Shown: in pieces, positions 3,580 through 19,725 of the stretch
How the letters are laid out: each line of letters opens with the position of its first letter
How positions within the stretch are numbered: the first letter of the stretch is position 1
IMG/VR virus record: IMGVR_UViG_3300025117_000050
Coordinates: 32,702 to 96,701 of that record
Strand: one strand, 5' to 3'
Length of the DNA stretch: 64,000 nt
Source of the DNA: a virus
The notes under the pieces: model-generated
What the model saw: the letters and a program-made list of their open reading frames with translations, nothing else
Told to the model about the DNA's origin: nothing
Databases searched by the model: none
Position numbers and translations under genes: made by a program

Positions 3580-3592
3580 GGAGGAAAATATT

Positions 3593-4006
3593 ATGGAAAA
3601 TGAAAATGAAATTATCCAATATTTTATAGTTAATTCAGAAATTAAAATATCAGCACCTAAGTTATCAGTACAGATAGGACATGTAGCAACTATAATTACA
3701 CATGATATTATAAAAAGAATGTATCAACCAATAAGTGAAAATGAAGAATATATTAATCCTAATATATTGATTAATATTAATGATTGGTTAGAATGGTATA
3801 ACGATGGCAAAAATCAAAAGAAGATTATACTTAGAGGTAAAGAGAAACAATTATTAAAATTGATTGATCAGGGATTTTATTATATTAGAGATAATGGGTG
3901 TAATGAGTTAGAAAAAGGGACACTTACAACGGTAGGTCTGCCACCTATGAAAAGAAGCGAAGCACAAAAATATATAAAAAAATTACAATTATATAAAGGA
4001 GATTAA
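3593..4006 (+). CDS. Peptidyl-tRNA hydrolase, Pth2 type
   Basis: QYFIVNSEIKISAPKLSVQIGHVA, QKKIILRG and IRDNGCNELEKGTLTTVGLPP match the Pth2 pattern; ATG at 3593 follows AAGGAGG. Confidence 0.8.
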   Translation: MENENEIIQYFIVNSEIKISAPKLSVQIGHVATIITHDIIKRMYQPISENEEYINPNILININDWLEWYNDGKNQKKIILRGKEKQLLKLIDQGFYYIRDNGCNELEKGTLTTVGLPPMKRSEAQKYIKKLQLYKGD

Positions 4007-4208
4007 ATATATGTTAGTTGAATTCAAAGCATGTAAAGATTGCTTATGTATATCTTGTTATTGTGTATATGATTGTCCAAAAGTAAAAGGATTAGCATGT
4101 GTAGAATGTAGTGGCAATCCACCAAAATTAGCAGAAGAATGTAAATATTATGAGGAAGGTTCATAAGTATAAATTAAATATAATCAGAAGGAGAAAATAA
4201 AATATAAA

Positions 4209-6237
4209 TTGAGATATATTAAATTAAAATGTGAACAATATGATTGCAAAGCAGAATTTTTAATAGAATTAAATGATTGGTATAATAAAGAATATGAAGA
4301 AATAGTTCAAGATTTTTATATCTGTCCTATTTGTAATTCTTTAGTTCATTCAAATAAAGAAGATTGTATTATTGAAATTAAATCATTATAAAACAGAATC
4401 TATTTAAAAAAATATAAATTAGCCGAAAGGAGTAATTATATATGGATAGACTGACAAAAAGAACACCAAAAGGAATTGCATACATGGCTATCGCAGACAC
4501 ATTACCTAAAATAGAGCAAGAAATAGAAGGTTCAAAACCGATACTTGAAGAATTGTATGCAATGTTTCAAAAATTAGCAGATTATGAGGATAGAGACACT
4601 TCACAAAAACCAAGAGAGCATTATAATTGGGGTGATTTCTCAGATAAAGAAGAATATTCACATTGGTTTTGTGGTAAATGTGGTTGGGAATTGGATGAAG
4701 ATAAAAACTTCTGTAGTGAATGTGGACAAAGGATTGATTGGAGTTATACAAATAAAATTTAACAAAAAGTTCATTTGGTTTTAATTTTAAATAAAAAGGA
4801 GAGAAATAATATGGCGGATAAATCAATTTTCAAATGTCCTAAATGTGGTAAAAAATTTATTAGAGATTTGCATTATAATACAATAGTTGGTATGCAAAAT
4901 CTTATAAGTATTTCTTCTGATGGAGATGGAATTGAAGATATGTGTATGTGTTGTGGTTATATCGTTGTAAACAAAGATGTGGAGGATAAATAATAAATGA
5001 AAATGAATCCATTTAAGTTATATATGATTATGATAGGTTGTTTTATGATGGGTGTTTCCACTGGTATATCAATAGGAATAATTATCAAATAGGACTTTCA
5101 TCACGATTTTAGAAAGGAGTAAATTTTATGAATAATAATATTACTAAAGATATTAAATATCTAATTTTTAAACTTAATTGCGCAGAAGAAGACCAAAACT
5201 GGAGTTTGGTTATAGATGTAAGGGTGGAATTGGAAATGTTGATTGATAAAATTAATAAAGGAGAAGGAGAATAATAATGTTAAAAATTAAATATTATTGT
5301 GGACTAAGTTTAGATTTAAATCAAGAAAAAGAATGTGAGAGTCAAGGGATAATAGAATTGGATGACGATGATATTGAAGAGTATCATGAAGGATTTTATA
5401 GTATGGTATGTCCTTCATGTAAAAGAGAATTATATCAGTCAGAGGATCATTTTGAATTTATTGATGGAATGGAAGGAGAATAACCATGACAACTAAATTG
5501 TTATTAGAATTTACATTTGTAATATTCTTATTGCAAGTATATAAAACTAAATCATACTTCACACCATTAAAAATTAAGCAAGAAAAATTTGATAGTAATA
5601 GAGAAAATGTAGAAAAGTTTATAAATAAGAAAATATTAAATAAGATATTTATAATATTATCAATGTTATATGGCTCAATATATTTTACCTTCTACATAAT
5701 TGGAATAGAATTATTTAAAGAGACAAATTTAGTAGTATTTCCTATATTGATGATTGGATTGTTAACATATGATATTGTTAAAACTTTGTTAGAATTTAAA
5801 AGTGGTATGTTGTGGAATAGTATAATAGATAAATTAGAACATCCAATGACTACAGCATACTTGTTATATTTTGTTTATTATGTTTTGAGATAGGATTATA
5901 ATTAGAAAAAGGAGATAAAAATATGAAACGATTTAAATGCAAAGTAGAAAGAGTAAATGAATACATAATTGAGTTTGATGAAAATATATTAAATGAGGAA
6001 TGGATGGAATACTTTAGAAGTGTATTTTTTAATTATCATGAATTGGATGAACATGCTGAACATATAGCACAAATGAGAGCGAGATTTAAAAAAAGTTTTA
6101 TTGAAGGTTATGGTGTGCCGTTGATTGATGGTAAAGTATCATATTTTGCTAATGAAAAGAGTGTTAATAAAGCAATTAATATTATTATTGTAAGTGAAGA
6201 TGAAGATTATGAAGTAGATGTAGAAGAGATTATTTAA
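4209..6237 (+). other. Array of small hypothetical CDS (4209, 4442, ~4811, 5277, 5486 membrane protein, 5923), mostly zinc-ribbon proteins
   Basis: ORF track, RBSs, CxxC pairs; 5486-5893 has hydrophobic segments. Confidence 0.65.
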
Positions 6238-6250
6238 AGGAGATTAAATT

Positions 6251-6763
6251 ATGAACTTATTATTCAGTTCAGATATGCACTATTATCATAAAAATCTATC
6301 AATACACAGAGGATTTAATTCAATAGAAGAGATGAACGAGTTGATGATTGATAATCACAATGAAAAAGTTACTAAGAATGATCATATTTATATTCTAGGT
6401 GATTTTTCATTTGGTACAGTTGAACAAACATTAAAAATATTAGATAGGTTAAATGGAAATAAATATTTAATTATTGGAAATCACGATGAAAAAATGTTAA
6501 AGAGCAGAGAAGTGGTTAGTAAATTTGCATGGGTTAAAGATTATTATAAGTTAAAACATAATGGATTGAAAATTATATTATCACATTATCCATTTTATAG
6601 ATGGGATTGTAGTCATTATGAATCGTTGATGTTTTATGGGCATATTCATGATCAAAAATTAGATATTGAGATTAAGAATTCTTATAATGTAGGTGTTGAT
6701 GTTAATGATTATGAACCTGTGAGTTTGGAGGAGATATTAGGGAAGATTGATTATAAAAAATAA
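6251..6763 (+). CDS. Calcineurin-like metallophosphoesterase
   Basis: Motifs SDMH, LGDF, GNHD, SHYP, GHIH, NVGVD. Confidence 0.9.
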   Translation: MNLLFSSDMHYYHKNLSIHRGFNSIEEMNELMIDNHNEKVTKNDHIYILGDFSFGTVEQTLKILDRLNGNKYLIIGNHDEKMLKSREVVSKFAWVKDYYKLKHNGLKIILSHYPFYRWDCSHYESLMFYGHIHDQKLDIEIKNSYNVGVDVNDYEPVSLEEILGKIDYKK

Positions 6764-6895
6764 TTACAAAAATTAACATAATATTAATATAAAAAATGAT
6801 TGCATAGGACGAACTCTGGTTATAATATATATTATAAAGCACTATAGAAGTGTTACAAAAGTGTAAAATAATATATATTATAAGGAGTGATTTTA

Positions 6896-7336
6896 ATGAT
6901 TATTAAAACTCAAACTGCTAATGCTGTTAATGCTCAATGTTATAGGAAAGAGGAAGAGGTTGATTGGAGGTCGTGGTGTCCTAAACGTGGAGAGATTTAT
7001 TTGTGTCAGTTAGGAAATGAAGGTTTATTATATTCAGAAATTAAGGGTTATCGTCCAGTTTTAATAGCATCAAATGATATAGCGAACAGGCATAGCCCAG
7101 TAGTTACTATAATTCCATTAACTTCCAGTCAAATAAAAAATAACTTACCTGTTCATGTTAAAGTAGGGGTAGAAGAAGGGTTGCGAAATTTGAGTTTAAT
7201 TTGTTGCGAGCAGACTAAAACTGTGTCAAAAAATAGAATGTTTATAAACGGTAGTTTAGTTAAAATATGCAAATTAAGTAATGAATTAATGTGTAAAGTG
7301 GACAACGCATTAAAAATACAATTCGGATTAGTTTAA
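6896..7336 (+). CDS. PemK/MazF-family endoribonuclease, no adjacent antitoxin
   Basis: KRGEIYL...SEIKGYRPVLIASND..N..SPVVTIIPLTS...HV...CEQTKTVSK.R; ATG at 6896 follows AAGGAG. Confidence 0.88.
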   Translation: MIIKTQTANAVNAQCYRKEEEVDWRSWCPKRGEIYLCQLGNEGLLYSEIKGYRPVLIASNDIANRHSPVVTIIPLTSSQIKNNLPVHVKVGVEEGLRNLSLICCEQTKTVSKNRMFINGSLVKICKLSNELMCKVDNALKIQFGLV

Positions 7337-7483
7337 TTAAAATAGTGTGGTTAGAATGTTAATATAATTATACATATTAATAAAAGGATGTGATGTTATT
7401 TGATTGTGTGAAAATTTATAAAGTATTGTGTTTTTAGTTTATTGGTTTGGATTGAAATAATAAAATATTAAAGGAGGATAAAT

Positions 7484-8842
7484 TTGTTAGTTAAAAATCA
7501 AAAAGTTAAAGTTAAATGGAATGGAGCACATAGAAAATATTATGAAGAAAAAGGTTATCCATTTACTAATTATGGTGATGAATTAGAGATAGACATAAAA
7601 GATTTAGCACCAAAAAGTCAAAAATATGTTTTAGTTAGTTGTGATTATTGCGGTATACCATTTATGAGGAGGTATTGTAATTACAATACAAGAAAAGAAA
7701 AATACGGTAAAGATGATAAAGATTGTTGTGATGATTGCAGAGTACATAAAAGAGAAGAAACATGTTTAGATAAATATGGTTTTAAAAATGCTGTTCAAGT
7801 AGAAGAAATACAAAATAAAATAAAAGAAACTATTAAGGAAAAATATGGAGTAGAATATATATCTCAAGTAGAAGAAATTAAAAATAAAAAGAAACAAACT
7901 TGTTTAGATAGATATGGAGTAGAATATACCTTGCAAGTTCCAGAGATTAGAGAAATGATTATAGAAACTAATATAAATAAATATGGAGTTGAAAATCCAT
8001 TTCAAAATGAAGAAATTAAAGAAAAAATCAGACAAGTCAATATGGATAAATATGGTGTAGAATATCCAATGCAATTACCTGAAATAAGAGAAAAAAGTCA
8101 AGAAACAACTTTTAAAAATCTTGGTGTTAAATATGCTATGCAATCTTATAAAACACAAGAAAAAAATAAACAATCTATTCAAGATAAATACGGATATACA
8201 AATATTTTTCAGATACCAGAGATAAAAGAAAAAATAAAGAAAATTAATATTAAAAAATATGGAGCGGAAAATCCTTTAAATAATAAAGAAATTAGAGAAA
8301 AAGCTAATAAAACTATAAAAGATAAATATGGTGTTGATAATGTTTCACAGAATCCAGAAATACAAGCAAAAATTAGACGTTCATTTTATAAAAATGGTAC
8401 TACTCCTACTTCAATTCAACAAAGATATATTTGTTTTTTAGTAAACGGTAAATTAAATTTTCCTATTGGAAGAACAAATGCAGATATATTGATAAATAAT
8501 AATATAATTATTGAATATGATGGTGGTGGACATAATCTAAGTGTAAAAATAGGAAATATAACGCAAGATCAATTTAATAGAAAAGAAATTAAAAAATATT
8601 ATTTTTTAAAAAGTAAAGGATATAAGATTATTAGAATTGTATCTGCTAAAGATAATTTACCTAAAGAAGAGAAAAGATTAATTGATGCTATAAATATAGC
8701 AATTGATTATTTAAATCAAAATCATTCTTGGTTTGAAATAAATATTGATGATGGAAAATTAAGATGTATTTGTTATGAAAAAGATTATAATTTTGGAGAA
8801 TTAAGAAGAGGAACAAAAGAAAATTTAGCTATAAATACATAA
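7484..8842 (+). CDS. Probable free-standing homing endonuclease: Zn-binding N-terminus, KYGV repeats, Vsr/DUF559-like nuclease C-terminus
   Basis: CDYC...CCDDC; about nine ~20-aa KYG(V)E repeats; C-terminal ADIL...IIEYDGGGH...GYKIIRI. Confidence 0.7.
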   Translation: MLVKNQKVKVKWNGAHRKYYEEKGYPFTNYGDELEIDIKDLAPKSQKYVLVSCDYCGIPFMRRYCNYNTRKEKYGKDDKDCCDDCRVHKREETCLDKYGFKNAVQVEEIQNKIKETIKEKYGVEYISQVEEIKNKKKQTCLDRYGVEYTLQVPEIREMIIETNINKYGVENPFQNEEIKEKIRQVNMDKYGVEYPMQLPEIREKSQETTFKNLGVKYAMQSYKTQEKNKQSIQDKYGYTNIFQIPEIKEKIKKINIKKYGAENPLNNKEIREKANKTIKDKYGVDNVSQNPEIQAKIRRSFYKNGTTPTSIQQRYICFLVNGKLNFPIGRTNADILINNNIIIEYDGGGHNLSVKIGNITQDQFNRKEIKKYYFLKSKGYKIIRIVSAKDNLPKEEKRLIDAINIAIDYLNQNHSWFEINIDDGKLRCICYEKDYNFGELRRGTKENLAINT

Positions 8843-8881
8843 ATATTATATATTAAAAATAAAAGGAGGATTATATATTTA

Positions 8882-9475
8882 TTGATTGAATTTATTATAG
8901 GAGCATTTTTATATGCTAAATTTAAAAAAGGTTATAAGTTAAAATACATATTTAAATACCCATACATATTTGCGATAATACCACCTTTATTATGTGTTTT
9001 ACTATACATATATTTAGAATATTGTGTTTTTAATCAGCAATATTGGTTTTTCCCTTATCAACATATAATAAAGACTACAACGCTTATAAGTTATGTTCCG
9101 TTGATTTATATATATAATTTATATTATAATGATATATATGAAAATGATACATTAAAATCATTTTTAACATCTCCTGCTAGTAAAACTACATTTTGTTTAG
9201 GATTAGGCTCATTTTTAAACTATATGGCAATTATCTCTAACAATATGAAAATGCCAGTATTTCCCAGTAATTGTTATTGGACTGGTTATATTAAACCTGA
9301 ATTCATTAATGATGGTTTACATGTGCTAGGTGATGCTTATACTAAAGCAATCCCCTTATGCGATTGGATCGATTTTGGAATATATGTAGCTAGTCCAGGT
9401 GATATATTAATAAGATCATTTGCATTTTTAATTATTTATCATTCTATAAAAAATTCTAATAAAATGATAAAATAA
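8882..9475 (+). CDS. DUF5317-like integral membrane protein
   Basis: Hydrophobic; GSFLNYMAIISNNMKMPV...H...PLCDWI...SPGDILI pattern. Confidence 0.7.
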   Translation: MIEFIIGAFLYAKFKKGYKLKYIFKYPYIFAIIPPLLCVLLYIYLEYCVFNQQYWFFPYQHIIKTTTLISYVPLIYIYNLYYNDIYENDTLKSFLTSPASKTTFCLGLGSFLNYMAIISNNMKMPVFPSNCYWTGYIKPEFINDGLHVLGDAYTKAIPLCDWIDFGIYVASPGDILIRSFAFLIIYHSIKNSNKMIK

Positions 9476-9478
9476 TTG

Positions 9479-9507
9479 TTGACACATAATTAACTCTGTG
9501 GTAATAT
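9479..9507 (+). promoter_or_regulatory. sigma-A-type promoter for the sensor-agrD unit
   Basis: TTGACA-17 bp-TAATAT with TG extension. Confidence 0.6.
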
Positions 9508-9543
9508 ATAAATAGAAAAAGTTGCTAAGGAGTTGATAGAGAA

Positions 9544-10338
9544 ATGATACATGATATTACAAATGCTTTGTTAAATTTTTTACTTGTAAGTGTTTTGGAG
9601 GAGTTTGTATGGTTGTTAATAACCATAATATTATTAAAAAGATTTGATTTGCTTGATAGATATAGATGGAAAGAGAGTATGCGAGAATTTTTAATACCTA
9701 TCTTACCAACTGCACTTTATATCAATTTATCTAGATATGTTTTACATATGCCTAGAATAATAATATTATTTGGATGTATATTTATATTTTATGGTTTGAC
9801 ATTATATATAATAAAGAAAAATTCATTTATAGATGAAAAATTACCATATTTAAAAATATTAATGTTTGTATTTATAGGTATTCTTATTATAGGAATAACA
9901 GAATTGATTTATATGCCAATAATTTTATATATTATACAACAACCAGTAACAATAATGAATCAAAATATTTTAATGAATTTTGCATTTTCAATACCATCTA
10001 GAATATTTCAAATATTATTAATTCTTGCATTAATTTATAAATATAATGAAATTAAATTATTCAGCAATATAATAAAAGATAAAGTATTATTAATTATTAC
10101 AGTGTTGTTTTTAAGTATTATATTGCTAATAGTATTTATTACAACAAAAATTATTCATAGTTATTGTTTAATTTTAAACTTTTCTTTATATTCACAAATA
10201 TTAATTGGAATTAGCATAACAACAATTATAACATTAATAATATTTTTTTATCTTATTCCAATTAATTATTTAATAAATAAAATGTTTTTACTTAACAAAT
10301 CACATCAAAATATGTTTGATGATGATTATATAGATTAA
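9544..10338 (+). CDS. Multi-pass membrane protein resembling an AgrC N-terminal sensor domain, without HisKA/HATPase
   Basis: About 7 hydrophobic segments over 264 aa; directly upstream of the agrD-like ORF; ends in acidic tail NMFDDDYID. Confidence 0.55.
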   Translation: MIHDITNALLNFLLVSVLEEFVWLLITIILLKRFDLLDRYRWKESMREFLIPILPTALYINLSRYVLHMPRIIILFGCIFIFYGLTLYIIKKNSFIDEKLPYLKILMFVFIGILIIGITELIYMPIILYIIQQPVTIMNQNILMNFAFSIPSRIFQILLILALIYKYNEIKLFSNIIKDKVLLIITVLFLSIILLIVFITTKIIHSYCLILNFSLYSQILIGISITTIITLIIFFYLIPINYLINKMFLLNKSHQNMFDDDYID

Positions 10339-10359
10339 AATAGAAAGGAGGGAAATTTC

Positions 10360-10479
10360 ATGAAAAAGTTTGCAATTATTACTTCTTTAATTGGTATTAT
10401 CGGCATTATCTGTGCAAATTGTATTAATTCTGCTTGGACATTTAACCAACCGAAAGCACCATCTATGTTAGTTAAGTAA
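10360..10479 (+). CDS. agrD: AgrD-like cyclic lactone autoinducer propeptide, 39 aa (not in ORF track)
   Basis: AGAAAGGAGGG RBS, then MKKFAIITSLIGIIGIICANCINSAWTFNQPKAPSMLVK: hydrophobic leader, S-A-W-T-F core, QPKAP tail as in clostridial AgrD; agrB 1.4 kb downstream. Confidence 0.88.
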   Translation: MKKFAIITSLIGIIGIICANCINSAWTFNQPKAPSMLVK

Positions 10480-10496
10480 TTTATAACTACATAGAA

Positions 10497-10536
10497 TATT
10501 TATAGTAGAGGATGATTGTTTTCTCTACTATAAATA
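10497..10536 (+). terminator. 14-bp hairpin after agrD
   Basis: TATTTATAGTAGAG / CTCTACTATAAATA perfect inverted repeat. Confidence 0.7.
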
Positions 10537-10556
10537 CAAAAAATAAATATAAATAC

Positions 10557-10585
10557 TTGTATTCTGGAGGATAGTATGGTAAAAT
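10557..10585 (+). promoter_or_regulatory. sigma-A-type promoter for the HTH-MazF gene
   Basis: TTGTAT-17 bp-TAAAAT with TG extension. Confidence 0.5.
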
Positions 10586-10631
10586 AATAGATGTAATATA
10601 TATAAAATATTAAATTGAGGAGTGATTAATA

Positions 10632-11528
10632 ATGTCAATATTATTTGGTAAGAAGAATGTATTAAAACCTACTTCTACAAATTCTATTTCTGAAATAACA
10701 AAGAAAGAGTTAGCTTACAATATAAGAGTTGCCGTAGGTCATCGAAGTATTACTCAAGTCTGTAATATATTAAAAATGGTCGATCCAAAACCATTAGTTG
10801 ACTTAATAAAAATGAATTATAATGAATTACCTGATAGACAATTACTTAGAAAAATTGCATCTGCAAGCGAAGGTAGGGTTTCTTATCAAAACCTTTATTC
10901 TGTCTGCGGTTATTCCGAATTTGATTCTGAAGAAGATCGTAGTTGGGCAAAGTGGGTTCCTGAACGTGGTAGTTGTTATATGATTGATTTAGGATGGAAT
11001 ATGGATAGTGAGCAAAATTCTGTGCGTCCGGCAATAGTGATGCAAAACAACAAAGGCAATCAATACTCAGGAACAACCGTTATTATCCCTATATCTTCTC
11101 GTTCTAAAAAATTTTCTTCACAGATTCATGTATTATTAGAAAAAGAATTAGGATTTTTACGGGAATGTCAATGTTTTCCAGAACAAATTCGCTGTGTTTC
11201 AAAAAGGAGGTTCTTCTATAATTCTGTACCTTATAAAATCACTACTTTACCAGAACATAAATTATTAGAAATCAAAAACGCACTTGAGTTTGAACTAGGT
11301 TTTGAGCCTTTATATTTTGACGAAGAAAAAATATTTAAATTAATTTCTCATATTCGTTCTTTAGAAAATAATATTAAAATCAAAAAATCACATAATCTAA
11401 TTGATATATTAAATCAAAAAATGGATGATCTAAAAGAATACTGTTCAAAATATCATAAGAATCACAAGATTATCTTACAAGAATACGATAGAATCAACAA
11501 TTGCGGTTACAATGCAGTATCCATATAA
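10632..11528 (+). CDS. XRE-like HTH / PemK-MazF fusion protein with helical C-terminus
   Basis: N-term AVGHRSITQV...PDRQLLRKIASASEGRVSYQNLYSVCGY resembles clostridial XRE repressors; middle ERGSCYMIDLG...SEQNSVRPAIVMQNNKGN...IIPISS...EQIRCVSKRR is PemK/MazF. Confidence 0.8.
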   Translation: MSILFGKKNVLKPTSTNSISEITKKELAYNIRVAVGHRSITQVCNILKMVDPKPLVDLIKMNYNELPDRQLLRKIASASEGRVSYQNLYSVCGYSEFDSEEDRSWAKWVPERGSCYMIDLGWNMDSEQNSVRPAIVMQNNKGNQYSGTTVIIPISSRSKKFSSQIHVLLEKELGFLRECQCFPEQIRCVSKRRFFYNSVPYKITTLPEHKLLEIKNALEFELGFEPLYFDEEKIFKLISHIRSLENNIKIKKSHNLIDILNQKMDDLKEYCSKYHKNHKIILQEYDRINNCGYNAVSI

Positions 11529-11590
11529 AACAACAAATCCAACCAAAATAAACAAATAAAACTAAAACAAAAAAAAGGAGATCAATTAAA

Positions 11591-11932
11591 ATGATAATCT
11601 TTGATGAAAAACAATTAAAATACTTATTTAATAAATACAAAATAAGATATAAAATATTTGAAGAAACAAATATTCTACTTATAGATAGTGGTCTTGATGA
11701 GTGGTTAATCAAGTATCAACATGGAAGAGATCAACCATATTGCCTTATGCACAAAAATAAATTAAAACAAACTAAAAGGTTCCATGTGCAGAGATGGTTG
11801 TCAAATTTTTATCAATCACTTGATAGTCTATTGTCACATAAAAATATTTTTGTAGATCATTCAAGTTCAAAAAATACATATAAAAAATATAGAAATAATA
11901 AAATAAATAATAAAAGGAGAAAAAGTTGTTAA
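11591..11932 (+). CDS. Basic hypothetical protein, overlapping the agrB start
   Basis: 113-aa ORF, AAGGAG RBS. Confidence 0.65.
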   Translation: MIIFDEKQLKYLFNKYKIRYKIFEETNILLIDSGLDEWLIKYQHGRDQPYCLMHKNKLKQTKRFHVQRWLSNFYQSLDSLLSHKNIFVDHSSSKNTYKKYRNNKINNKRRKSC

Positions 11933-12720
11933 AATATATAAAAAACTACATAATAACATTTCGTTATATCAAACTATTCTCATATTGGAATGCAAGATAT
12001 TTGCATAACAAACTAAAAGAAGAAAGAATTAGAGAATCACAAAACTTACATAATCCACATAAAGAAAAACATAAATATTATTATATATTGCAAATGATAA
12101 TTAAAAAATTATTTCAAATAATTAATAAAATAATTTCTTTAACTCCATTAGGAAGAAAACTATCATCGTACATAACTGAAAAATATTCACAATATAAACA
12201 GAAAGAGAAAAAACCTAAAAAAATATACAACAGATACACCTACTATTATGGTCTTCAAATAATCATCGGAGGCATAAATAAATTCCTTCTACTAATCATA
12301 CCAGGCTTACTATTTAACATCTTGCCGCAACTATTACTAACCACGTTATCATTTGTATCACTAAGAATATGGACTGGTGGTCTGCACTACAATTCTTATA
12401 CCAAATGCAGCTACATATCACTATTATCCTTCACACTCACAGCACTACTATCAAAATACATCATATTAAATCAATTTATCACTATGTCAATATTTCTATC
12501 TGTATTTATATTAATTTTAATCTATGCCCCTGTAGAACATCCAAACAGACCAATAAAAGAAAAAGAAAAAATTAAATACAAATTAATCGCATTATTTGTA
12601 TTAAGCACCTTAACTATTATCTATATGTTTACAAATAATGTTATTATCTGTAATTCTATTATATATGGGATATTATTAGCAGGTATAATTATGTTACCAA
12701 TTATAAATAAACTAAGATAA
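11926..12720 (+). CDS. agrB: AgrB autoinducer-processing membrane peptidase with basic N-terminal extension
   Basis: YGLQII, LRIWTGGLH...TKC (catalytic His and Cys), YAPVEHPNRPI signature. Confidence 0.92.
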   Translation: MLKYIKNYIITFRYIKLFSYWNARYLHNKLKEERIRESQNLHNPHKEKHKYYYILQMIIKKLFQIINKIISLTPLGRKLSSYITEKYSQYKQKEKKPKKIYNRYTYYYGLQIIIGGINKFLLLIIPGLLFNILPQLLLTTLSFVSLRIWTGGLHYNSYTKCSYISLLSFTLTALLSKYIILNQFITMSIFLSVFILILIYAPVEHPNRPIKEKEKIKYKLIALFVLSTLTIIYMFTNNVIICNSIIYGILLAGIIMLPIINKLR

Positions 12721-12851
12721 TTATTAACATAATTTCGTAAATGGTCGATAAATGTCGGTAGGTGCGTATTGTTAATATGCTAAATATTATATAGAATAAT
12801 AGTATTAAAACATATTAATCACAAATTAAATTAAAATATGAATTTAGGCTA

Positions 12852-12905
12852 TTGTTTTTTTATTATTAAGGTATTATAATAGAACAAATATACAAACAAA
12901 TGTTC
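12852..12905 (+). promoter_or_regulatory. Promoter with tandem LexA (Cheo)-like boxes just downstream of -10
   Basis: TTGTTT-17 bp-TATAAT, then GAAC-AAAT-ATAC (12882-12893) and AAAC-AAAT-GTTC (12894-12905) versus consensus GAAC-N4-GTTC. Confidence 0.55.
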
Positions 12906-13160
12906 TACAAACAAATAGAGGAGGAGATTGTTACGAATAAAACAGTTTACACAATAAAAGATGAAAATGACAAATATGTACATGGTAATAGTATTAAAAA
13001 AATTAATGAAAAGTATTATTATTCCCCATATTCATGTTTAGAAGATGGTTGTATTGCTTATACTAATAAAATAAGAGTAGAGGAAGCATTGACTACTCTT
13101 AAATTACATAATCAACTAGGTGGGCTAGGTCACAAATTTATTATTACGCTTGTTTCATAA
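12900..13160 (+). CDS. Small hypothetical protein, probably SOS-regulated; start uncertain
   Basis: ORF track; the strong GAGGAGG at about 12918 lies inside the ORF, so the true start may be ATT 12927 or ACG 12933. Confidence 0.55.
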   Translation: MFYKQIEEEIVTNKTVYTIKDENDKYVHGNSIKKINEKYYYSPYSCLEDGCIAYTNKIRVEEALTTLKLHNQLGGLGHKFIITLVS

Positions 13161-13182
13161 TCAATAAATAATAATTTTTCTA

Positions 13183-13211
13183 TTGACATAGCATACTAAT
13201 ACATATATAAT
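13183..13211 (+). promoter_or_regulatory. Consensus sigma-A promoter for the putative repressor operon
   Basis: TTGACA-17 bp-TATAAT. Confidence 0.8.
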
Positions 13212-13258
13212 AATCATTAATGAGATATTATATATAAATAAAAAAGAGGTGAGTAACT

Positions 13259-14635
13259 ATGCTTAATATTAAAAATGCTATGTTGATAAAAGAATTAAAA
13301 CCACTAATAATTAAATATGGAAACAATTCAAAAATTTATAATCTTGTTCACGAATCCTTTATTAAAAAGGGTTTAACGGGTAGTAATGCAAAAAATCTAT
13401 TTACAGGTAAACTACCATTAGAATCTTTAGATATCACTTGTCAAAAAGAATTATATTTATTATTTTCTTTTACTGATAGCATGAGAAAAGCATTAAATTC
13501 ATTTGATGAAATGTCTAAAGATACTTTTGGTTCAGAAGAAGAGTACTCAAAATTAAAACTAGAAAATTATTTTACTCCTATGGAAATTGAAGAGTTTACG
13601 GATTTCGTGATAGAGAAAGAAGAAATAAGTAGATATCCTTACAGATTAAAAAACATGTTAAAAGTTGGGGAAAATCACTATATAGGCATTATATCTGCTA
13701 GAGAATTATCTTGGATAGATGCCTCCAATGACATTGTTTATGATTTCGCTGTACAGCGTGATCCCAAAATTGATATATTTGGCATGAAACGTATTAATAC
13801 TGATTTAAAGAAAATAGATGAAATGACAGAGAAGTTACTTTCTGGCAATTACTTTTCAGATGAAATTAAGTTAAATGTTAAGAATGATGGTGAAGATCAT
13901 ATCGAATTCGATTCAAAAGACGGAATTTATGGTGATCTTATTATTCATTCAGGAACAATAACTTGTTTTGACGGTTATCACAGAAAAGCAGCCAATTCAA
14001 AAGTTATGAATATTAATAATGAATTGCAATTTAATTGGAAACTAGGTGTTACTAACTATCCAGAACCTAAAGCAAAAAAATTCATGATTCAAATTAACAA
14101 ACAAAAACCTATTAAGATTGAACACATCAGAAATATTGATGAAACAAGAAATGAAAATGTAATTGTCAATAATATTATCAATAATTCTAATTCCGAACTT
14201 GCTGATAAGATTAAAGATTCTGATGCAGAATTAAAACATGGTGGATTAACTAAAAAATCTATATTATCTTTAGCAATAGAAGAACAATATAAGGAATTTT
14301 TAGTTACTAAAATCAATAATATTGAAATATCTAATTGGATAGTAGAATTCACAAATCATTTAATGGGATTATATACTAACGAATTTTTATTTAATGTAGA
14401 CAAAACTAAAAAAATAAGTTATATTAATCATAAGAATATGTTTATGGGATATATCGCACTTTCAAGAAAATTGTATAAGCAAGATGATTGGAAAAATAAA
14501 ACTAAAAAAATAATGGAAAGCGTTGATTTTAGCATTGATAATGATATTTGGAAAAGTATTAAAATCAATGAAGATAATTTAAATAAAACATCAAAGAATG
14601 AATTATATAATATATTTATTAAAAAGCAGGTGTAA
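13259..14635 (+). CDS. DGQHR/DndB/ParB-like domain protein, resembling SPbeta YopQ (SroE)
   Basis: YDFAVQRD, FSDEIKLNV, FDGYHR, FMIQINKQKP motifs; sits directly upstream of an integrase-like gene. Confidence 0.6.
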   Translation: MLNIKNAMLIKELKPLIIKYGNNSKIYNLVHESFIKKGLTGSNAKNLFTGKLPLESLDITCQKELYLLFSFTDSMRKALNSFDEMSKDTFGSEEEYSKLKLENYFTPMEIEEFTDFVIEKEEISRYPYRLKNMLKVGENHYIGIISARELSWIDASNDIVYDFAVQRDPKIDIFGMKRINTDLKKIDEMTEKLLSGNYFSDEIKLNVKNDGEDHIEFDSKDGIYGDLIIHSGTITCFDGYHRKAANSKVMNINNELQFNWKLGVTNYPEPKAKKFMIQINKQKPIKIEHIRNIDETRNENVIVNNIINNSNSELADKIKDSDAELKHGGLTKKSILSLAIEEQYKEFLVTKINNIEISNWIVEFTNHLMGLYTNEFLFNVDKTKKISYINHKNMFMGYIALSRKLYKQDDWKNKTKKIMESVDFSIDNDIWKSIKINEDNLNKTSKNELYNIFIKKQV

Positions 14636-14640
14636 AATAA

Positions 14641-15711
14641 ATGGTAAAACATAGAAACGGGAGAAAAAATTTAGCAGAAAGAGTGTTTAAGCATGATAGA
14701 GATGTTAAAGAAGAATTCTTAAAATCATTGAAACCCTCAACTGCTAATACTGTAAGAAGTATACTTTTTAAGGTAGATGAATATGAAGAATTAATTGGGA
14801 AAAGTATATATGATTTTAATTTAGATGATCGTGATGATTTTATTATATCTATGTTCCCTAATAAAAGTAAAGGTGTTATTAATACAACTAGATCATATCT
14901 GGTAGGATATATTAATTATTGTATTGACAATAACCTTGTTAGACATATGGAAAATAGATTTAGTTTAATCTCTAAAGATGATATAGATAATTATGTCAAT
15001 GATATGGCTATGCAAATGAAGTACCTGTCGAAGGAAGAAATTAAAGAAGCACAAAGTAAATTGGTTAATAATTGTGATAAATTAATTTTGCAATTAGTTC
15101 CTTTATCAGCCAGAGGTCGCACCGAAAAGGATAATACTAATGAAGAATTAATAAATTTAAGAGTGCAAGATGCTGTAGAATCTTACGAAAAAGGCAATCT
15201 AAAACTTTGGAATAATGATGGAGATTTTAGGTATATAAAAATTGATGATGAAACAATAGAATTATTAAAGAAAACTATAAATGATGATAAATATATCATT
15301 AATAATGGAAGTGAATATAGTCGTAAAAGACATGATAAAAAACTTGGCAGAGGCATGGGAGAAAAAAGTTTCCCTTTAAATGATACTGGCTATGTTTTTA
15401 GAACTGCTGGCAAGAATAAAAGGGGTAAAGTTAAATCCAATTATTTTAATTCTAAAATTAATATAATAAAAGATTGGGTGGAGAATCCATTTATTAACAT
15501 AACTAATTTACACGCATCAGGTATGATTGATTATGTCATCCAATTAGAAAATGAAAAAGGAGAAGAATTAGATAATAACGACTATATAGATGTTTGTGAA
15601 AAATATTTATTTGGTAAACCTAGAATTTTGCCCAATGGTGAAAATGATTGGAGTATGTCAATATCAAAATTAAAGACAATGGTAAAAGATTATATTAATA
15701 TTAAATCATAA
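14641..15711 (+). CDS. Tyrosine-recombinase-fold protein lacking the HxxR motif; putative master repressor like SPbeta YopR/SroF/MrpR
   Basis: SAM-like N-terminus (KEEFL...EELIGKSIYDFN...YINYCI), box I-like ARG...EELINLRVQD, box II region reads ITNLHASG. Confidence 0.6.
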   Translation: MVKHRNGRKNLAERVFKHDRDVKEEFLKSLKPSTANTVRSILFKVDEYEELIGKSIYDFNLDDRDDFIISMFPNKSKGVINTTRSYLVGYINYCIDNNLVRHMENRFSLISKDDIDNYVNDMAMQMKYLSKEEIKEAQSKLVNNCDKLILQLVPLSARGRTEKDNTNEELINLRVQDAVESYEKGNLKLWNNDGDFRYIKIDDETIELLKKTINDDKYIINNGSEYSRKRHDKKLGRGMGEKSFPLNDTGYVFRTAGKNKRGKVKSNYFNSKINIIKDWVENPFINITNLHASGMIDYVIQLENEKGEELDNNDYIDVCEKYLFGKPRILPNGENDWSMSISKLKTMVKDYINIKS

Positions 15712-15723
15712 GGATGTGAAAAA

Positions 15724-16578
15724 ATGGCGAAAAATAGTATTAACTTATCTGACTATGAAGATATAGAAGTTTATAATATGGTTAGGTTTGGAATTATAGG
15801 TAGATTTCCTAATAATTTTTGGGGTGGATTAGATACTTATAAAACTGCAAAAGACCTGACTAGATATATGTTTGAAAATATTCTTGAATGGAGTATAGAA
15901 GATATTAAGCATAAGGTAACAGCAGATATTTTTTATGAAAATAAACTTGGTAATATGCTAAAAACACTTTTTGATAATAATTTATTAGATGCATTGCTTA
16001 ACGCATACCCAGAATTAGCAGATTGGGTAGAAGAAAAAAAGAATAAAATTATTATCGAAAAAGAACCAAGAGAAAAATATACAGATGAAGAGTTAATAGA
16101 AAATTTACAGCAAAAATATAAGGAATTAAATAGAACACCTTATATAAGAGAAATGTCTGAACCAGAAGGAAATGTTTATATATCAAGATTTGGTAGTTGG
16201 AGTAATGCTTTAATTCTTGCTGAGTTAATTGAGGACATATGTGTAGATGTAGATAATTCAGAAGAAGCAATTAATAAAGCGCAAAGGGAAATTAAAGATT
16301 TTGCGTATAAAGTAGAAAGATTACCAACTAAAAAAGAAGTAGATAATTTATTTTCTCCTGGAGAATTAATATCATATTTCGGTTCTTTAAAAGGACTTTA
16401 TGATTATTTAAGTGAAGGTTATACAGAAGAAGAATTAATAAATATATTAATTGATAAAAGAAATAAATTAGGGAGAAATCCAATAAATAAGGATATAAAA
16501 TTCCCAAGACCAATTATCTTTATTGATAAATTCAATAGTTGGGAGAATGCCTTAAAAGAAGCAAGATTAGATGAATAA
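15724..16578 (+). CDS. DUF4046-like domain plus homing-endonuclease-associated repeats, no nuclease domain seen
   Basis: FPNNFW...RYMFENILEW...ALLNAYP, then three YTDEELI...RTP...FGSW..AL-type repeats. Confidence 0.6.
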   Translation: MAKNSINLSDYEDIEVYNMVRFGIIGRFPNNFWGGLDTYKTAKDLTRYMFENILEWSIEDIKHKVTADIFYENKLGNMLKTLFDNNLLDALLNAYPELADWVEEKKNKIIIEKEPREKYTDEELIENLQQKYKELNRTPYIREMSEPEGNVYISRFGSWSNALILAELIEDICVDVDNSEEAINKAQREIKDFAYKVERLPTKKEVDNLFSPGELISYFGSLKGLYDYLSEGYTEEELINILIDKRNKLGRNPINKDIKFPRPIIFIDKFNSWENALKEARLDE

Positions 16579-16595
16579 TTTAATCTTGCTTCTTT
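16555..16595. terminator. Bidirectional terminator between convergent genes
   Basis: AAAGAAGCAAGATTA ... TAATCTTGCTTCTTT. Confidence 0.75.
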
Positions 16596-16598
16596 TAT

Positions 16599-16832
16599 TT
16601 ATGTCAAACCCTTAATCCATTTTTCAGCAGCTAAACAGCATCCTTCAAAACTATTGAATTTAATATCTTCATTCAAAGAAATATAAATAATATCGTTATC
16701 ACGATCTATCTGAAAGTGATAGTAATATGTATCAGGCATATAATAAATATACGCTTTACATCCTTTTGCTCATCTTGCTATGCTGACCCACGTAGGGTAT
16801 ACTTTACGCTTTAATATTCTTTTAAATTTCAT
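16599..16832 (-). pseudogene. Minus-strand small gene with in-frame TGA at codon 21
   Basis: AAGGAAGTG RBS; MKFKRILKRKVYPTWVSIAR*AKGCKAYIYY...AAEKWIKGLT; ends at the shared terminator. Confidence 0.55.
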
Positions 16833-17446
16833 TATGTCACTTCCTTGATGATAAATTGGTTAAGCTATAAATGTTGTTTTTTGTCGATATTTATAAGAAT
16901 TTGCTGAATATTAATTAATATTATATCATTAAGTTAATATTTTGGGAATATTATAAGAGATATTGTAGTTTTGATGGTAATATATGATAATATATAGAAA
17001 AATATGGTAATAATCAATAAAAATACTAAAAATCTTGTTTTTCTATATTCAGAAACCCTTGTTTTATAAGGGTTTGTGGGATCGGATTTCGTGATAAAAT
17101 AACTCTTTTGTGTTGAGTTAAATATTTGAAAAATAATTGAAATATTTCTTGCATTTATTTTTACATTGTGTTATTATATGTGTAAGGTAAAAGTAAGTAA
17201 ATAAAATATTAAAGAGAAGGAGAGATAATTTAATGAGTAGCATACATGACAAACCAGAATTATTAATTCCACCAAAAGGTGTTTGTATGAACCCACCGAG
17301 ATTACATAATTTTAATTGTGAAGGGTGTAAGTATTTTGAGGGATGCACTAATGAAAAGAAAGGTAATTATAAGAAGACTAAATAGAAATAAATTGAATTA
17401 TTCAAAAAACAGTAGTATAATATAAGTAAACATTATTCAATAAAGG

Positions 17447-17695
17447 ATGTTGCAAATGACTACAAACAACAATGAATCCAATATATATATTATTTGCTCA
17501 GGAGATAATTCAGGGAACATAGAAACATTCGATTATAGGTGTCCCAAGGAAGGGATTAATAAAGGTGATTGCAGACTAAATGGTAAAACATGTGAATATT
17601 TTATAGGTATTAAAAATGATAAGTTAAATTTTGATATTATGAATATTAAGGGTTATTGTGAGTTTATATTGAATATAAAAAGTAAGTTTAGGTGA
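17447..17695 (+). CDS. Cys-rich hypothetical protein
   Basis: ORF track. Confidence 0.55.
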   Translation: MLQMTTNNNESNIYIICSGDNSGNIETFDYRCPKEGINKGDCRLNGKTCEYFIGIKNDKLNFDIMNIKGYCEFILNIKSKFR

Positions 17696-17704
17696 TATAA
17701 TATA

Positions 17705-18316
17705 ATGAAACCTATAAACAAAGAATTAATCATCAAAGTATGTGAGCATATAATAGAACACAATCTTTCTTATAGAAAAATAGCTGATATATTCGGAATC
17801 AATTTCAAAACTGTTTACAATTATACACAAATGATTGAAAGTATTGATTCCGAATTACATATAAAAGTCCAAAAATGTTTAAAAGAGAGAAAGGAAAAAC
17901 ATCATAAACATTTATTGAAAAACTTAAACAATATCTATAAAGAAATTTGTGAATATTTTATTTGTGGAAGTACCATGAAACAGACTGGAATACATTTTAA
18001 TTCCAGTAATCGCTCTATACACTATTTATTCCATAATTATGTTAAATATAATGATCCTGAATTATATGTTATGATTTTAGAAATGATAGAATTAAATAAA
18101 CTTAAATCAATTAAGACACGTTCTGGAATAAGAAAGATGAAAAACATTGAAGAAAGATTAAATCTTTGTAAGACTATTATTAGTGACAAATTAACTTTGA
18201 AAGCAACAAGTGAAATATTTGATTTAGATGTAAAGACGATAAAAAGTTATATTAATAGTATAAGAGATGTGGATTATGGATTGCATGATGAAGTTTATAA
18301 ACATTTGTGGAGATAA
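17705..18316 (+). CDS. Protein of three tandem SpoIIID-like HTH units
   Basis: IIKVCEHIIEHNLSYRKIADIFGINFKTVY...IDSELHIKV and two further copies resemble SpoIIID (IGKYIVETKKTVRVIAKEFGVSKSTVH...INPDLANEV). Confidence 0.65.
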   Translation: MKPINKELIIKVCEHIIEHNLSYRKIADIFGINFKTVYNYTQMIESIDSELHIKVQKCLKERKEKHHKHLLKNLNNIYKEICEYFICGSTMKQTGIHFNSSNRSIHYLFHNYVKYNDPELYVMILEMIELNKLKSIKTRSGIRKMKNIEERLNLCKTIISDKLTLKATSEIFDLDVKTIKSYINSIRDVDYGLHDEVYKHLWR

Positions 18317-19725
18317 GGAGGAATGAATATGTGGAATCAAAGCATTAAAACTGATTTTGAAATTAAAGGATTTAAATTAATTGGTAAAATTCATCAAGTA
18401 GAATATCTAGCAAAAATCAATGAAGATAGAGAATTAATATATGTGACTATGTACAATGACAAATCAACAGGTAATCCAAGAAGTTTAAGTGTGGATGAAA
18501 TTGAATTATTTTATAATGCATTGAAAATGTTAAAGGAGATTAAATAATGAAAATATTAAAAGTAATTGTAGATGAAGAATTGCCTAAATCGTGTAAAGAA
18601 TGTGGATTTAGGCATAATTGGGAAACAAAATGTTATTGTCATATAAAATCATATACTACTAGTAAAAGGAATCATTTCATAGGTAAATATGATGATATTA
18701 AAGGTAGACATAAAAATTGTCCGTTAGTATATAATGGTTAATATTTAAAGGAGAAATAAATATGAAAAACATTCAATTAGATATGATTGTTGAAACTAAA
18801 TTATCAGTTATTGAATTTAATAAAAAATTTATTGAATGGGTAGAATTTAATAATTGGACTTGTGGTGGGATAATGATTGAAGTAGATGATGATGGTAATA
18901 AAATTAAGAAAAGTAGTCTAAAACAAACAATTATAAATCAATAGTATAAACTAGAAAACGCAAAACATTTAAAAGATGTGCTAATTATTTTACCTGAAGT
19001 AGAAGATAATTTGGATAAAAATTTATTTGATAATGAAGATGATTGAAATTTAATAGATTATTTATTATGTTTTAAGTGAAAGGATAAAACAATGAATATA
19101 AAATTACCCATAGAGAAACAACAAAAATTTCAAATAGGTGATATATGTAAAATTGTTGAAAAGGGAATTTTTGAAGTTATAGTACAGTATCCTCCTTCAG
19201 AATTAGAAGATTATAAAAAAGACAGAGAATGTATTATTCTTCATACCTATTCACAAGTTTATTGGGGAAGTAATTTTAGTAATTATAGTGTATATTTGCT
19301 TCCAAGAAATAAAAATGAATATGCTGGAAATTTAGCATGGATAGAAGAAAATCAATTGAGATTCATAAGAAAATCAACAGAAAAAGAAATTACAATAGTG
19401 ATTCAAGAAGATAATAAGATGCTATCTTATAAAAATTGTCCTTATACATCAATTTTTAATGAAACAAAACATGATTAAACTTATATTTTATGTCGATCTT
19501 GAAAGGATATTAAAATTATGAAACAAATTGATCAAGAAATAATAAATGATATACAATATTTATTAAATATGTATGAAGCATATATTGATGATATAGTTGG
19601 CGAAGCATGGGAAGATGAAAGGTTTATAAAACTTACTACTAAATATAGATTTACAAAAGAAAATTTACATAAAGGATTAGAAGATTTACATTGTTAATAA
19701 TAAATATATAGAGGAGGAAAAGTTT

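Follow-up and report, generated by a model that had tools for sequence, protein, structure and literature searches.

What is the role of a MazF-type toxin fused to a helix-turn-helix (HTH) domain when its gene lies inside the agr cluster of a phage? The question is raised by a stretch of 64,000 nucleotides (hereafter the window), which comprises bases 32702-96701 of the 96.7-kb IMG/VR virus record IMGVR_UViG_3300025117_000050 (CheckV completeness 49%). The window has a G+C content of ~25%, and its long open reading frames (ORFs) are nearly all on the plus strand. The answer that we favour, with a probability of roughly 0.45, is that the fusion is a phage-borne, self-regulated MazF. It would supply the nuclease of an SPbeta-like lysis-lysogeny module whose signal is an agr-type peptide in place of arbitrium. 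The gene and its three domains are located as follows.

10632-11528, plus strand: HTH-MazF-helical-tail fusion gene (ORF and translation, 298 aa)
10683-10919, plus strand: XRE/lambda-repressor-like HTH domain, residues ~18-96 (fold and profile)
10944-11297, plus strand: PemK/MazF endoribonuclease domain, residues ~105-222 (Pfam, PDB profile, Foldseek)
11307-11525, plus strand: C-terminal three-helix domain, residues ~226-298, of no known family (structure model)

The reading frame is open from an ATG at 10632 to a TAA at 11526-11528 and is preceded by a GAGGAG ribosome-binding site at 10617-10622. About 75 homologous loci were fetched: 11 viral ones (on contigs of 42-167 kb), one on a contig of a Bacillota metagenome-assembled genome (MAG) and 63 from metagenomes. 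Full-length homologues of the fusion number 66, all of them uncharacterised and nearly all from metagenomes. They are 41-99% identical, and across this range all three regions are conserved, with the exception of one tail-less subfamily. No DNA near-identical to the locus was found among GenBank phages and plasmids. A literature search retrieved no paper on an HTH-MazF fusion, nor on an agr module beside an MrpR-type repressor.

The central domain is a MazF by sequence and by predicted structure. Pfam PemK_toxin (PF02452) matches residues 111-219 of the fusion (E 3.4e-17, 63 bits against a cut-off of 23.1), and a profile of 33 family members retrieves Staphylococcus aureus MazF and Bacillus subtilis EndoA with E values of 9e-29 to 7e-27. 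In the AlphaFold model (predicted local distance difference test, pLDDT, 81.7), the domain adopts the SH3-like barrel fold of MazF/CcdB, and Foldseek aligns it with 1NE8, 4MDX and 7BXY at template modelling (TM) scores of 0.88-0.92 and root mean square deviations (rmsd) of 1.6-2.4 A. The RP motif and the Ser at the catalytic Thr position, both of which had been read from the sequence in the original prediction, are present: the motif is R132-P133, and S155 aligns with Thr48 of B. subtilis MazF (BsMazF). R132, which aligns with Arg25 of BsMazF, is invariant in 52 of 52 distinct relatives, while position 155 is occupied by Ser in 37 of them, by Thr in 15 and by nothing else. Arg25 and Thr48 are the catalytic residues of BsMazF, a UACAU-specific enzyme (PMC8634880). 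The window's fusion additionally keeps E127, Q128, N143, E184, Q185 and R187, which are aligned to E20, Q21, N36 and E78-Q79-I80-R81 of BsMazF. These BsMazF-aligned positions (E20, Q21, N36 and E78-R81) vary in other fusion subfamilies, which may therefore differ in specificity. Judged from these residues, the fusion would be an RNase of a given sequence specificity. It resembles the MazF/EndoA proteins of B. subtilis and S. aureus in fold (TM 0.9), in the catalytic Arg plus Thr/Ser, in overall identity (the MazF domain is 32-36% identical to MazF of Bacillota) and, in the window's copy, in the E-Q-I-R stretch aligned to B. subtilis residues 78-81. It differs from them in the XRE HTH, the helical tail, an acidic-Trp extension, its phage origin and the absence of an adjacent mazE.

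The N-terminal domain was identified by other means. No Pfam HTH family matched the whole fusion protein at E<=0.1. At E<=10, 11 of 12 N-terminal domains gave no HTH match and the twelfth matched only HTH_DeoR (E 0.03), and a PDB sequence-profile search with this domain returned nothing significant. Both AlphaFold models, nevertheless, place five helices in residues 21-92. In an exhaustive VIA-align comparison, the top 50 matches were nearly all XRE, Cro or cI domains, led by 2OFY (Z 9.1, 76 residues, rmsd 2.6 A) and including C.AhdI (Z 8.1) and CapH (Z 8.0); further fold matches were SinR, ImmR, HigA, HipB, ComR and PrgX. Foldseek returned the same kind of proteins, but at non-significant E values of at least 0.09. 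A HMMER profile of the domain retrieved 639 proteins at E<=1e-3 from 1.84 billion representatives. In a sample of 20 of these hits, Pfam HTH_3 (PF01381) was found in nine, seven of them above threshold, and PemK/MazF in six. Wherever the matched stretch is listed (e.g. P0076, P0087, P0090 and P0093), HTH_3 falls inside the profile-matched region. Protein P0124 is LexA/cI-like, with Peptidase_S24 and with HTH_3 at 21.2 bits, just below the 23-bit cut-off. Considering the fold matches and the profile intermediates carrying HTH_3, we accept the N-terminus as a predicted HTH of XRE type, by fold and profile only. It is a putative DNA-binding domain. By our own count on the translation, residues 1-92 have a net charge of about +7, and no operator was recognised. 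With XRE antitoxins and repressors (HigA, HipB, C-proteins, SinR, ImmR), the domain has in common the five-helix fold (Z 6-9) and a typical helix 4, P-x-x-x-L-L-x-K-I-A. It differs from them in having no direct HTH_3 match and an atypical recognition helix, and in being fused to a toxin instead of paired with one.

In the AlphaFold model, the C-terminal tail consists of helices at residues 231-251, 254-273 and 278-295, and K263, Y270 and C271 are invariant in the tail alignment. The tail has no PDB profile match, and the protein atlas returned only generic helical bundles. The domain is absent from the subfamily formed by L007, L009, L010 and L011. The claim that an HTH, a MazF domain and a helical tail are joined on one polypeptide is thus supported by fold, profiles and domain search. 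The XRE fold and the HTH_3-bearing profile hits also speak against the possibility, raised together with that claim, that the N-terminus is not an HTH.

The fusion is embedded in a block of genes that recurs in its relatives. The other members of this block in the window are listed below.

6887-7336, plus strand: second, stand-alone MazF paralogue, 149 aa (Pfam, E 4.9e-23)
8882-9475, plus strand: DUF5317 membrane protein (Pfam, E 9e-13)
9544-10338, plus strand: membrane protein with seven transmembrane helices (7-TM protein), an acidic cytoplasmic tail and no kinase domain (alignment; co-varies with AgrD)
10360-10479, plus strand: AgrD-like propeptide, 39 aa (alignment of 11 homologues; hidden Markov model, HMM, matches in ~60 loci)
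11591-11932, plus strand: small basic ORF, orf113 (113 aa), between the fusion and agrB (no family match)
11926-12720, plus strand: AgrB peptidase (Pfam AgrB, E 9e-37)

The fusion lies between the 39-aa AgrD-like ORF and AgrB, as had been stated, with the 113-aa ORF also in between. It had further been claimed that a response regulator normally sits between agrD and agrB. This is wrong, as the canonical agr order is agrB-D-C-A. The H-x6-C pair of AgrB, which we take to be catalytic as in S. aureus AgrB, is invariant in 41 of 41 sequences. A tblastn search of GenBank phages with the window's AgrB gave nothing at E<=1e-3. No Pfam model matches the AgrD-like peptide. Its sequence has the features of an AgrD, namely a Cys/Ser, a five-residue ring and a conserved Pro-containing tail: in 11 homologues an invariant Ser stands five residues before a [NHS][QE]PxxP tail, and a Ser-lactone ring is predicted. 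With respect to AgrC and AgrA, neither HATPase_c_5 (PF14501) nor LytTR (PF04397) was detected in six phage records, namely that of the window and five related ones, of which two are complete. Phage phiCDHM1 of Clostridioides difficile likewise has agrB and agrD but, unlike the window, carries an agrC kinase and no MazF fusion (PMC3901668).

The gene order is kept in 12 loci retrieved by BLAST and in ~60 more retrieved by HMM: (MazF paralogue, homing endonuclease), DUF5317, 7-TM protein, AgrD-like peptide, fusion, an optional small ORF, AgrB, a 458-aa gene and a 356-aa gene. The small ORF, orf113, is present in only some relatives. When we checked whether homologues of the fusion occur without agr genes, the HTH-bearing form was found in 64 loci, and wherever enough flanking sequence was available it was always flanked by the 7-TM protein and agrD on its upstream side and by agrB on its downstream side. 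An HTH-less form (MazF and tail only) occurs in L008, a phage without agr genes. In L073, the 7-TM protein, agrD and the fusion are jointly missing, and the stand-alone MazF lies right next to orf113 and a remnant of AgrB. This stand-alone MazF is found in most relatives and has the acidic-Trp N-terminal extension in common with the fusion. Among 399 sampled genomes of the phylum of the MAG mentioned above, a full-length fusion was found in one MAG only, on its phage-like contig L012, and the others had plain MazF. The MAG holding L012 also has an agrB of its own beside a HATPase_c_5 histidine kinase (L079/L081, contig C6 of genome G007, ~260-262 kb). If the binning is right, there is a host AgrC that could sense the phage peptide or be jammed by it.

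Within this block, the transcription signals divide the agr genes into two units.

9479-9507, plus strand: promoter of the 7-TM-agrD unit, TTGACA, 17 nt, TGgTAATAT (scan, 10/12 match with TG)
10501-10532, plus strand: stem-loop after agrD, which splits the two transcription units (read from the sequence)
10557-10585, plus strand: promoter of the fusion-orf113-agrB unit, TTGTAT (10557-62), 17 nt, TGgTAAAAT (-10 at 10580-85) (read from the sequence)

The fusion had been credited with a promoter of its own, and an extended -10 promoter is indeed found at 10557-10585. Its hexamers and the preceding hairpin are conserved in 11 diverged loci. A simple promoter scan missed it because the -35 element matches at only 3/6 positions. 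The stem-loop after agrD is present in 11 of 11 aligned loci, with compensatory changes in four of the six consensus pairs; the terminator scan was blank at this place because no T-run follows the stem. Between the agrD stop codon and the stem-loop, at window positions 10488-10492, there is a UACAU whose position is shared by 8 of 11 diverged loci. MazF may cut at this conserved site, which would take the 3' hairpin off the 7-TM-agrD transcript.

The most informative part of the context had been missed: directly 3' of the agr block there are repressor genes of the SPbeta type.

13183-13211, plus strand: consensus promoter of the repressor operon (scan, 12/12 match)
13259-14635, plus strand: YopQ (SroE)-like gene, 458 aa (BLASTP to SPbeta YopQ, E 1e-24)
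14641-15711, plus strand: YopR/MrpR (SroF)-like master repressor gene, 356 aa (tblastn to SPbeta yopR, E 1e-9; BLASTP, E 2e-16)

These genes start ~540 nt past agrB, and the YopR-like protein matches Pfam MrpR_N_CB with 50.2 bits against a cut-off of 27. In SPbeta, aimR-aimP is located upstream of the yopM-R repressor operon. We scored pentamer depletion in these and other genes of the block against synonymous-codon shuffles and ranked it among the 1,024 pentamers. No pentamer is more depleted than TACAT in 16 non-redundant YopQ-like genes (6 observed, 21.8 expected, z -4.1), and in 18 YopR-like genes it comes third (9 observed, 24.3 expected). This depletion argues that a UACAU-specific nuclease is a real selective force on the repressor operon. 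DUF5317 genes are enriched in UACAU about twofold (99 observed versus 51 expected in 26 genes). Self-immunity of the fusion gene through UACAU avoidance was considered and rejected, as 33 genes contain 27 sites versus 28.7 expected (rank 454). Pentamers containing GATC (GATCT, GGATC) are likewise strongly depleted in the YopQ/YopR-like genes, perhaps because a restriction enzyme specific for GATC is being avoided. Two further SPbeta counterparts were sought, and the comparisons gave no support to either: the HTH of the fusion as a homologue of YopO, and orf86 as a homologue of YopN.

The closest parallel to this arrangement is the arbitrium locus of SPbeta/phi3T. There, too, YopQ and YopR/MrpR homologues are preceded by a secreted-peptide module, a MazF nuclease takes part (PMC10769878), and UACAU content differs between phage genes, as it does here. 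The window differs in having AgrB/AgrD (a cyclic ester peptide) instead of AimP and a MazF that is phage-encoded and HTH-fused, and equivalents of yopM-P are missing. As for other arbitrium genes, Pfam scans of the ORFs in 3139-19478 named no family besides those given in this text, although AimR was not searched for with a model of its own, and nothing resembling AimX was recognised. In phi3T, it is the MazF of the host that arbitrium controls, and lysogeny is promoted by the activity of MazF (PMC10769878; bioRxiv 10.1101/2023.04.27.537455, Guler et al., preprint).

Following this parallel, AgrB and AgrD would generate a Ser-lactone autoinducing peptide in infected cells. Its reader would be either the 7-TM protein that co-varies with AgrD or a host AgrC. 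MazF would carry the output by cutting UACAU-containing transcripts and sparing the UACAU-depleted repressor operon, so that lysogeny would be favoured, as with host MazF for phi3T. The HTH would let the fusion regulate its own operon, including agrB, in a role akin to that of the DNA-binding domain of MazE in a two-gene system. We thus infer a coupling of the fusion to the peptide signal and an effect on the choice between lysis and lysogeny. The original prediction had named the fusion the best candidate effector of agr. Operon membership and co-occurrence favour this designation; the fusion does not co-vary with the peptide, however, and the loci are not independent, and we regard the designation as a partly supported proposal.

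The variation among the loci indicates which component could be specific to the peptide. Pairwise identities, computed over 57 non-identical loci, delimit two cassettes, DUF5317-7-TM-AgrD and fusion-(orf113)-AgrB, each of which varies as a unit. Where the 7-TM proteins are at least 70% identical, AgrD is 62-100% identical, and where they are at most 45% identical, the mean for AgrD is 44%. DUF5317 identity correlates with 7-TM identity (Spearman 0.68). The three domains of the fusion vary together and with AgrB (N-terminal domain versus AgrB, Spearman 0.77), which fits one operon. Between cassettes, the correspondence is lost. L023 and L063 have 7-TM proteins 99% identical and AgrD 100% identical, with fusions only 41-45% identical, whereas in L014 and L017 the fusions are 88-100% identical and the 7-TM proteins 28%. 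In the comparison of L024 with the window, YopQ is 97% identical and the 7-TM protein only 34%. DUF5317-7-TM-AgrD is therefore a hypervariable cassette that is swapped between phages independently of fusion-AgrB and of the flanks, and it resembles agr specificity groups. Since recombination freely separates the fusion from the pair of 7-TM protein and AgrD, the fusion does not read the identity of the peptide. A partner specific to the peptide is most naturally sought in the 7-TM protein, which co-varies with AgrD. The fusion is a generic part that can be exchanged, located downstream of the signal or independent of it.

We read seven helices from the hydropathy of the 7-TM protein, whose N-terminus would be outside and whose acidic tail would be cytoplasmic. 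It has no match in Pfam, PHROG or GenBank phages (tblastn), and the protein atlas contains only unnamed, mostly viral clusters at TM<0.4. Among the matches listed (longer or near-length proteins), none was a kinase-fused relative. With neither named nor kinase-fused relatives, the label 'AgrC-like' has topology as its sole basis. Right after agrB, L009 (9620-10483) and L011 (9622-10473) encode a second 7-TM paralogue, whose tail is longer and very acidic. A stricter version of the favoured reading, which we consider unlikely, would have a kinase-less 7-TM receptor gate the DNA-binding MazF by protein contact. An agr-type circuit without a two-component system would then replace arbitrium and settle the choice of lysis or lysogeny by UACAU cutting, with the repressor operon spared.

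Several points weigh against a MazF-based lysis-lysogeny module under an agr-type signal. The fusion recombines freely with respect to the 7-TM/AgrD pair, and nothing indicates that it is specifically matched to the signal. The recognition helix of its HTH is atypical. No antitoxin or inhibitor was identified, and Pfam scans of the neighbouring ORFs detected no mazE-like gene nearby. The UACAU depletion could be driven by a host MazF or by the stand-alone phage MazF instead of the fusion, and the fusion genes as a group do not avoid UACAU, even if the copy in the window is free of it. Only one of five records searched contained a serine recombinase, and neither of two complete relatives did, so that a temperate lifestyle is not proven. 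The related loci belong to large phages that form a single clade of collinear genomes, and adjacency could accordingly be inherited synteny and not independent evidence. In addition, a truncated stand-alone MazF continues in frame into the start of the fusion in protein P0010 (404 aa, 19 contigs), which suggests a lineage that lacks the genes otherwise lying between the two (endonuclease, DUF5317, 7-TM protein and agrD). No viral loci were found for this chimera or for the distant HTH-MazF fusions P0081 and P0085.

Some of these observations would be accommodated if the fusion were a single-chain toxin-antitoxin, with the XRE domain and the acidic linker as built-in antitoxin and autorepressor. 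Its function would then be prophage maintenance, superinfection exclusion or abortive infection, and its position in the agr block would merely be inherited. XRE domains are common in antitoxins, the fold matches include HigA, HipB and Xre antitoxins, no separate mazE-like gene is encoded nearby, and MazF-like 'growth inhibitor' morons are common in phages. The independence of the fusion from the 7-TM/AgrD pair in recombination would also be expected. Covalently linked toxin-antitoxin proteins are known. In those of the EzeT type (PMC4826407), a toxin and a regulatory, antitoxin-like domain share one polypeptide, as in the fusion; the toxin, however, is of another family, the fusion has a DNA-binding domain and a third domain, and neutralisation in cis is only putative for the fusion. 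The conserved promoter shared with agrB and the co-evolution with that gene are not explained by an inherited position, nor are the HTH-less form in L008, where agr is absent, and the joint absence of fusion, agrD and 7-TM protein in L073. The acidic-Trp linker is also present in HTH-less paralogues and is thus not specific to an antitoxin role, and no PADLOC defence system was matched. We regard a self-contained toxin-antitoxin as somewhat unlikely, though it survives better than the other alternatives.

The kinship of the domain with host enzymes raises another alternative, in which the fusion is not itself a working nuclease but manipulates host MazEF, either by capturing MazE and freeing host MazF, as phi3T_93 does, or by forming mixed dimers with host MazF. 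Several phi3T proteins act on host MazE/MazF by molecular mimicry (PMC10769878), and an identity of 32-36% to Bacillota MazF would be compatible with such contacts. A pure decoy, however, would have no need of the catalytic Arg and Ser/Thr that are kept in 52 of 52 relatives, and the phage has a second complete MazF as well, which leaves this alternative improbable. We find it quite improbable that the programme is strictly lytic and that the fusion acts in it as a host-shutoff nuclease, uninvolved in any lysogeny decision. Such a role would be in line with the classification of phage MazF-like growth inhibitors under host takeover and with the two complete relatives in which the search found no serine recombinase. 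It would leave unexplained why the fusion adjoins an MrpR-type master repressor operon that specifically avoids UACAU, and a host-shutoff enzyme does not need an HTH domain. That the fusion is mainly a transcription factor, in which the MazF fold was recruited for dimerisation or peptide binding and which serves as an RRNPP-like intracellular receptor of the AgrD-derived peptide, is highly improbable: the HTHs of the peptide receptors ComR and PrgX are among the fold matches and peptides, among them the MazE tail, AimX and YosL, bind in MazF grooves (PMC10769878), but the fusion does not co-vary with AgrD, its catalytic residues are conserved, and Agr peptides are exported as cyclic esters with no evident import route.

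To return to the favoured reading, of a phage MazF serving a lysis-lysogeny module, the phage clade pairs its own MazF genes and an agr-type signal with the same kind of UACAU-avoiding repressor operon. If the link holds, MazF-based life-cycle control would be ancient and portable, extending beyond Bacillus phages, and the locus would be the first example of agr signalling without AgrC and AgrA. The fusion would also offer a compact three-domain protein for testing how a toxin is tamed for regulation.

Other features of the window and of the related contigs are of minor relevance to the fusion. The stand-alone MazF gene at 6887-7336 has no antitoxin gene adjacent to it, and a calcineurin-like phosphoesterase and unknown ORFs are encoded upstream. 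Between this gene and DUF5317, at 7484-8842, there is a DUF7487/homing-endonuclease-like gene whose presence and position vary among relatives. A short, unusually G+C-rich stretch containing a near direct repeat (GTCGATAAATGTCGGTA) is found at window 12735-12770, between agrB and orf86, and might be an operator or a recombination site. Contig Ga0209518_1000004 (540,969 bp) contains one locus twice (L064 and L067), ~270 kb apart and with identical scores, which suggests a concatemeric assembly of a ~270-kb phage genome. The window also encodes a PTH2-type peptidyl-tRNA hydrolase at 3572-4006. Beyond the repressor operon, at 17705-18316, it encodes a SpoIIID-like HTH protein, whose copy in L001 is 91% identical, versus only ~35% for the repressor genes between.

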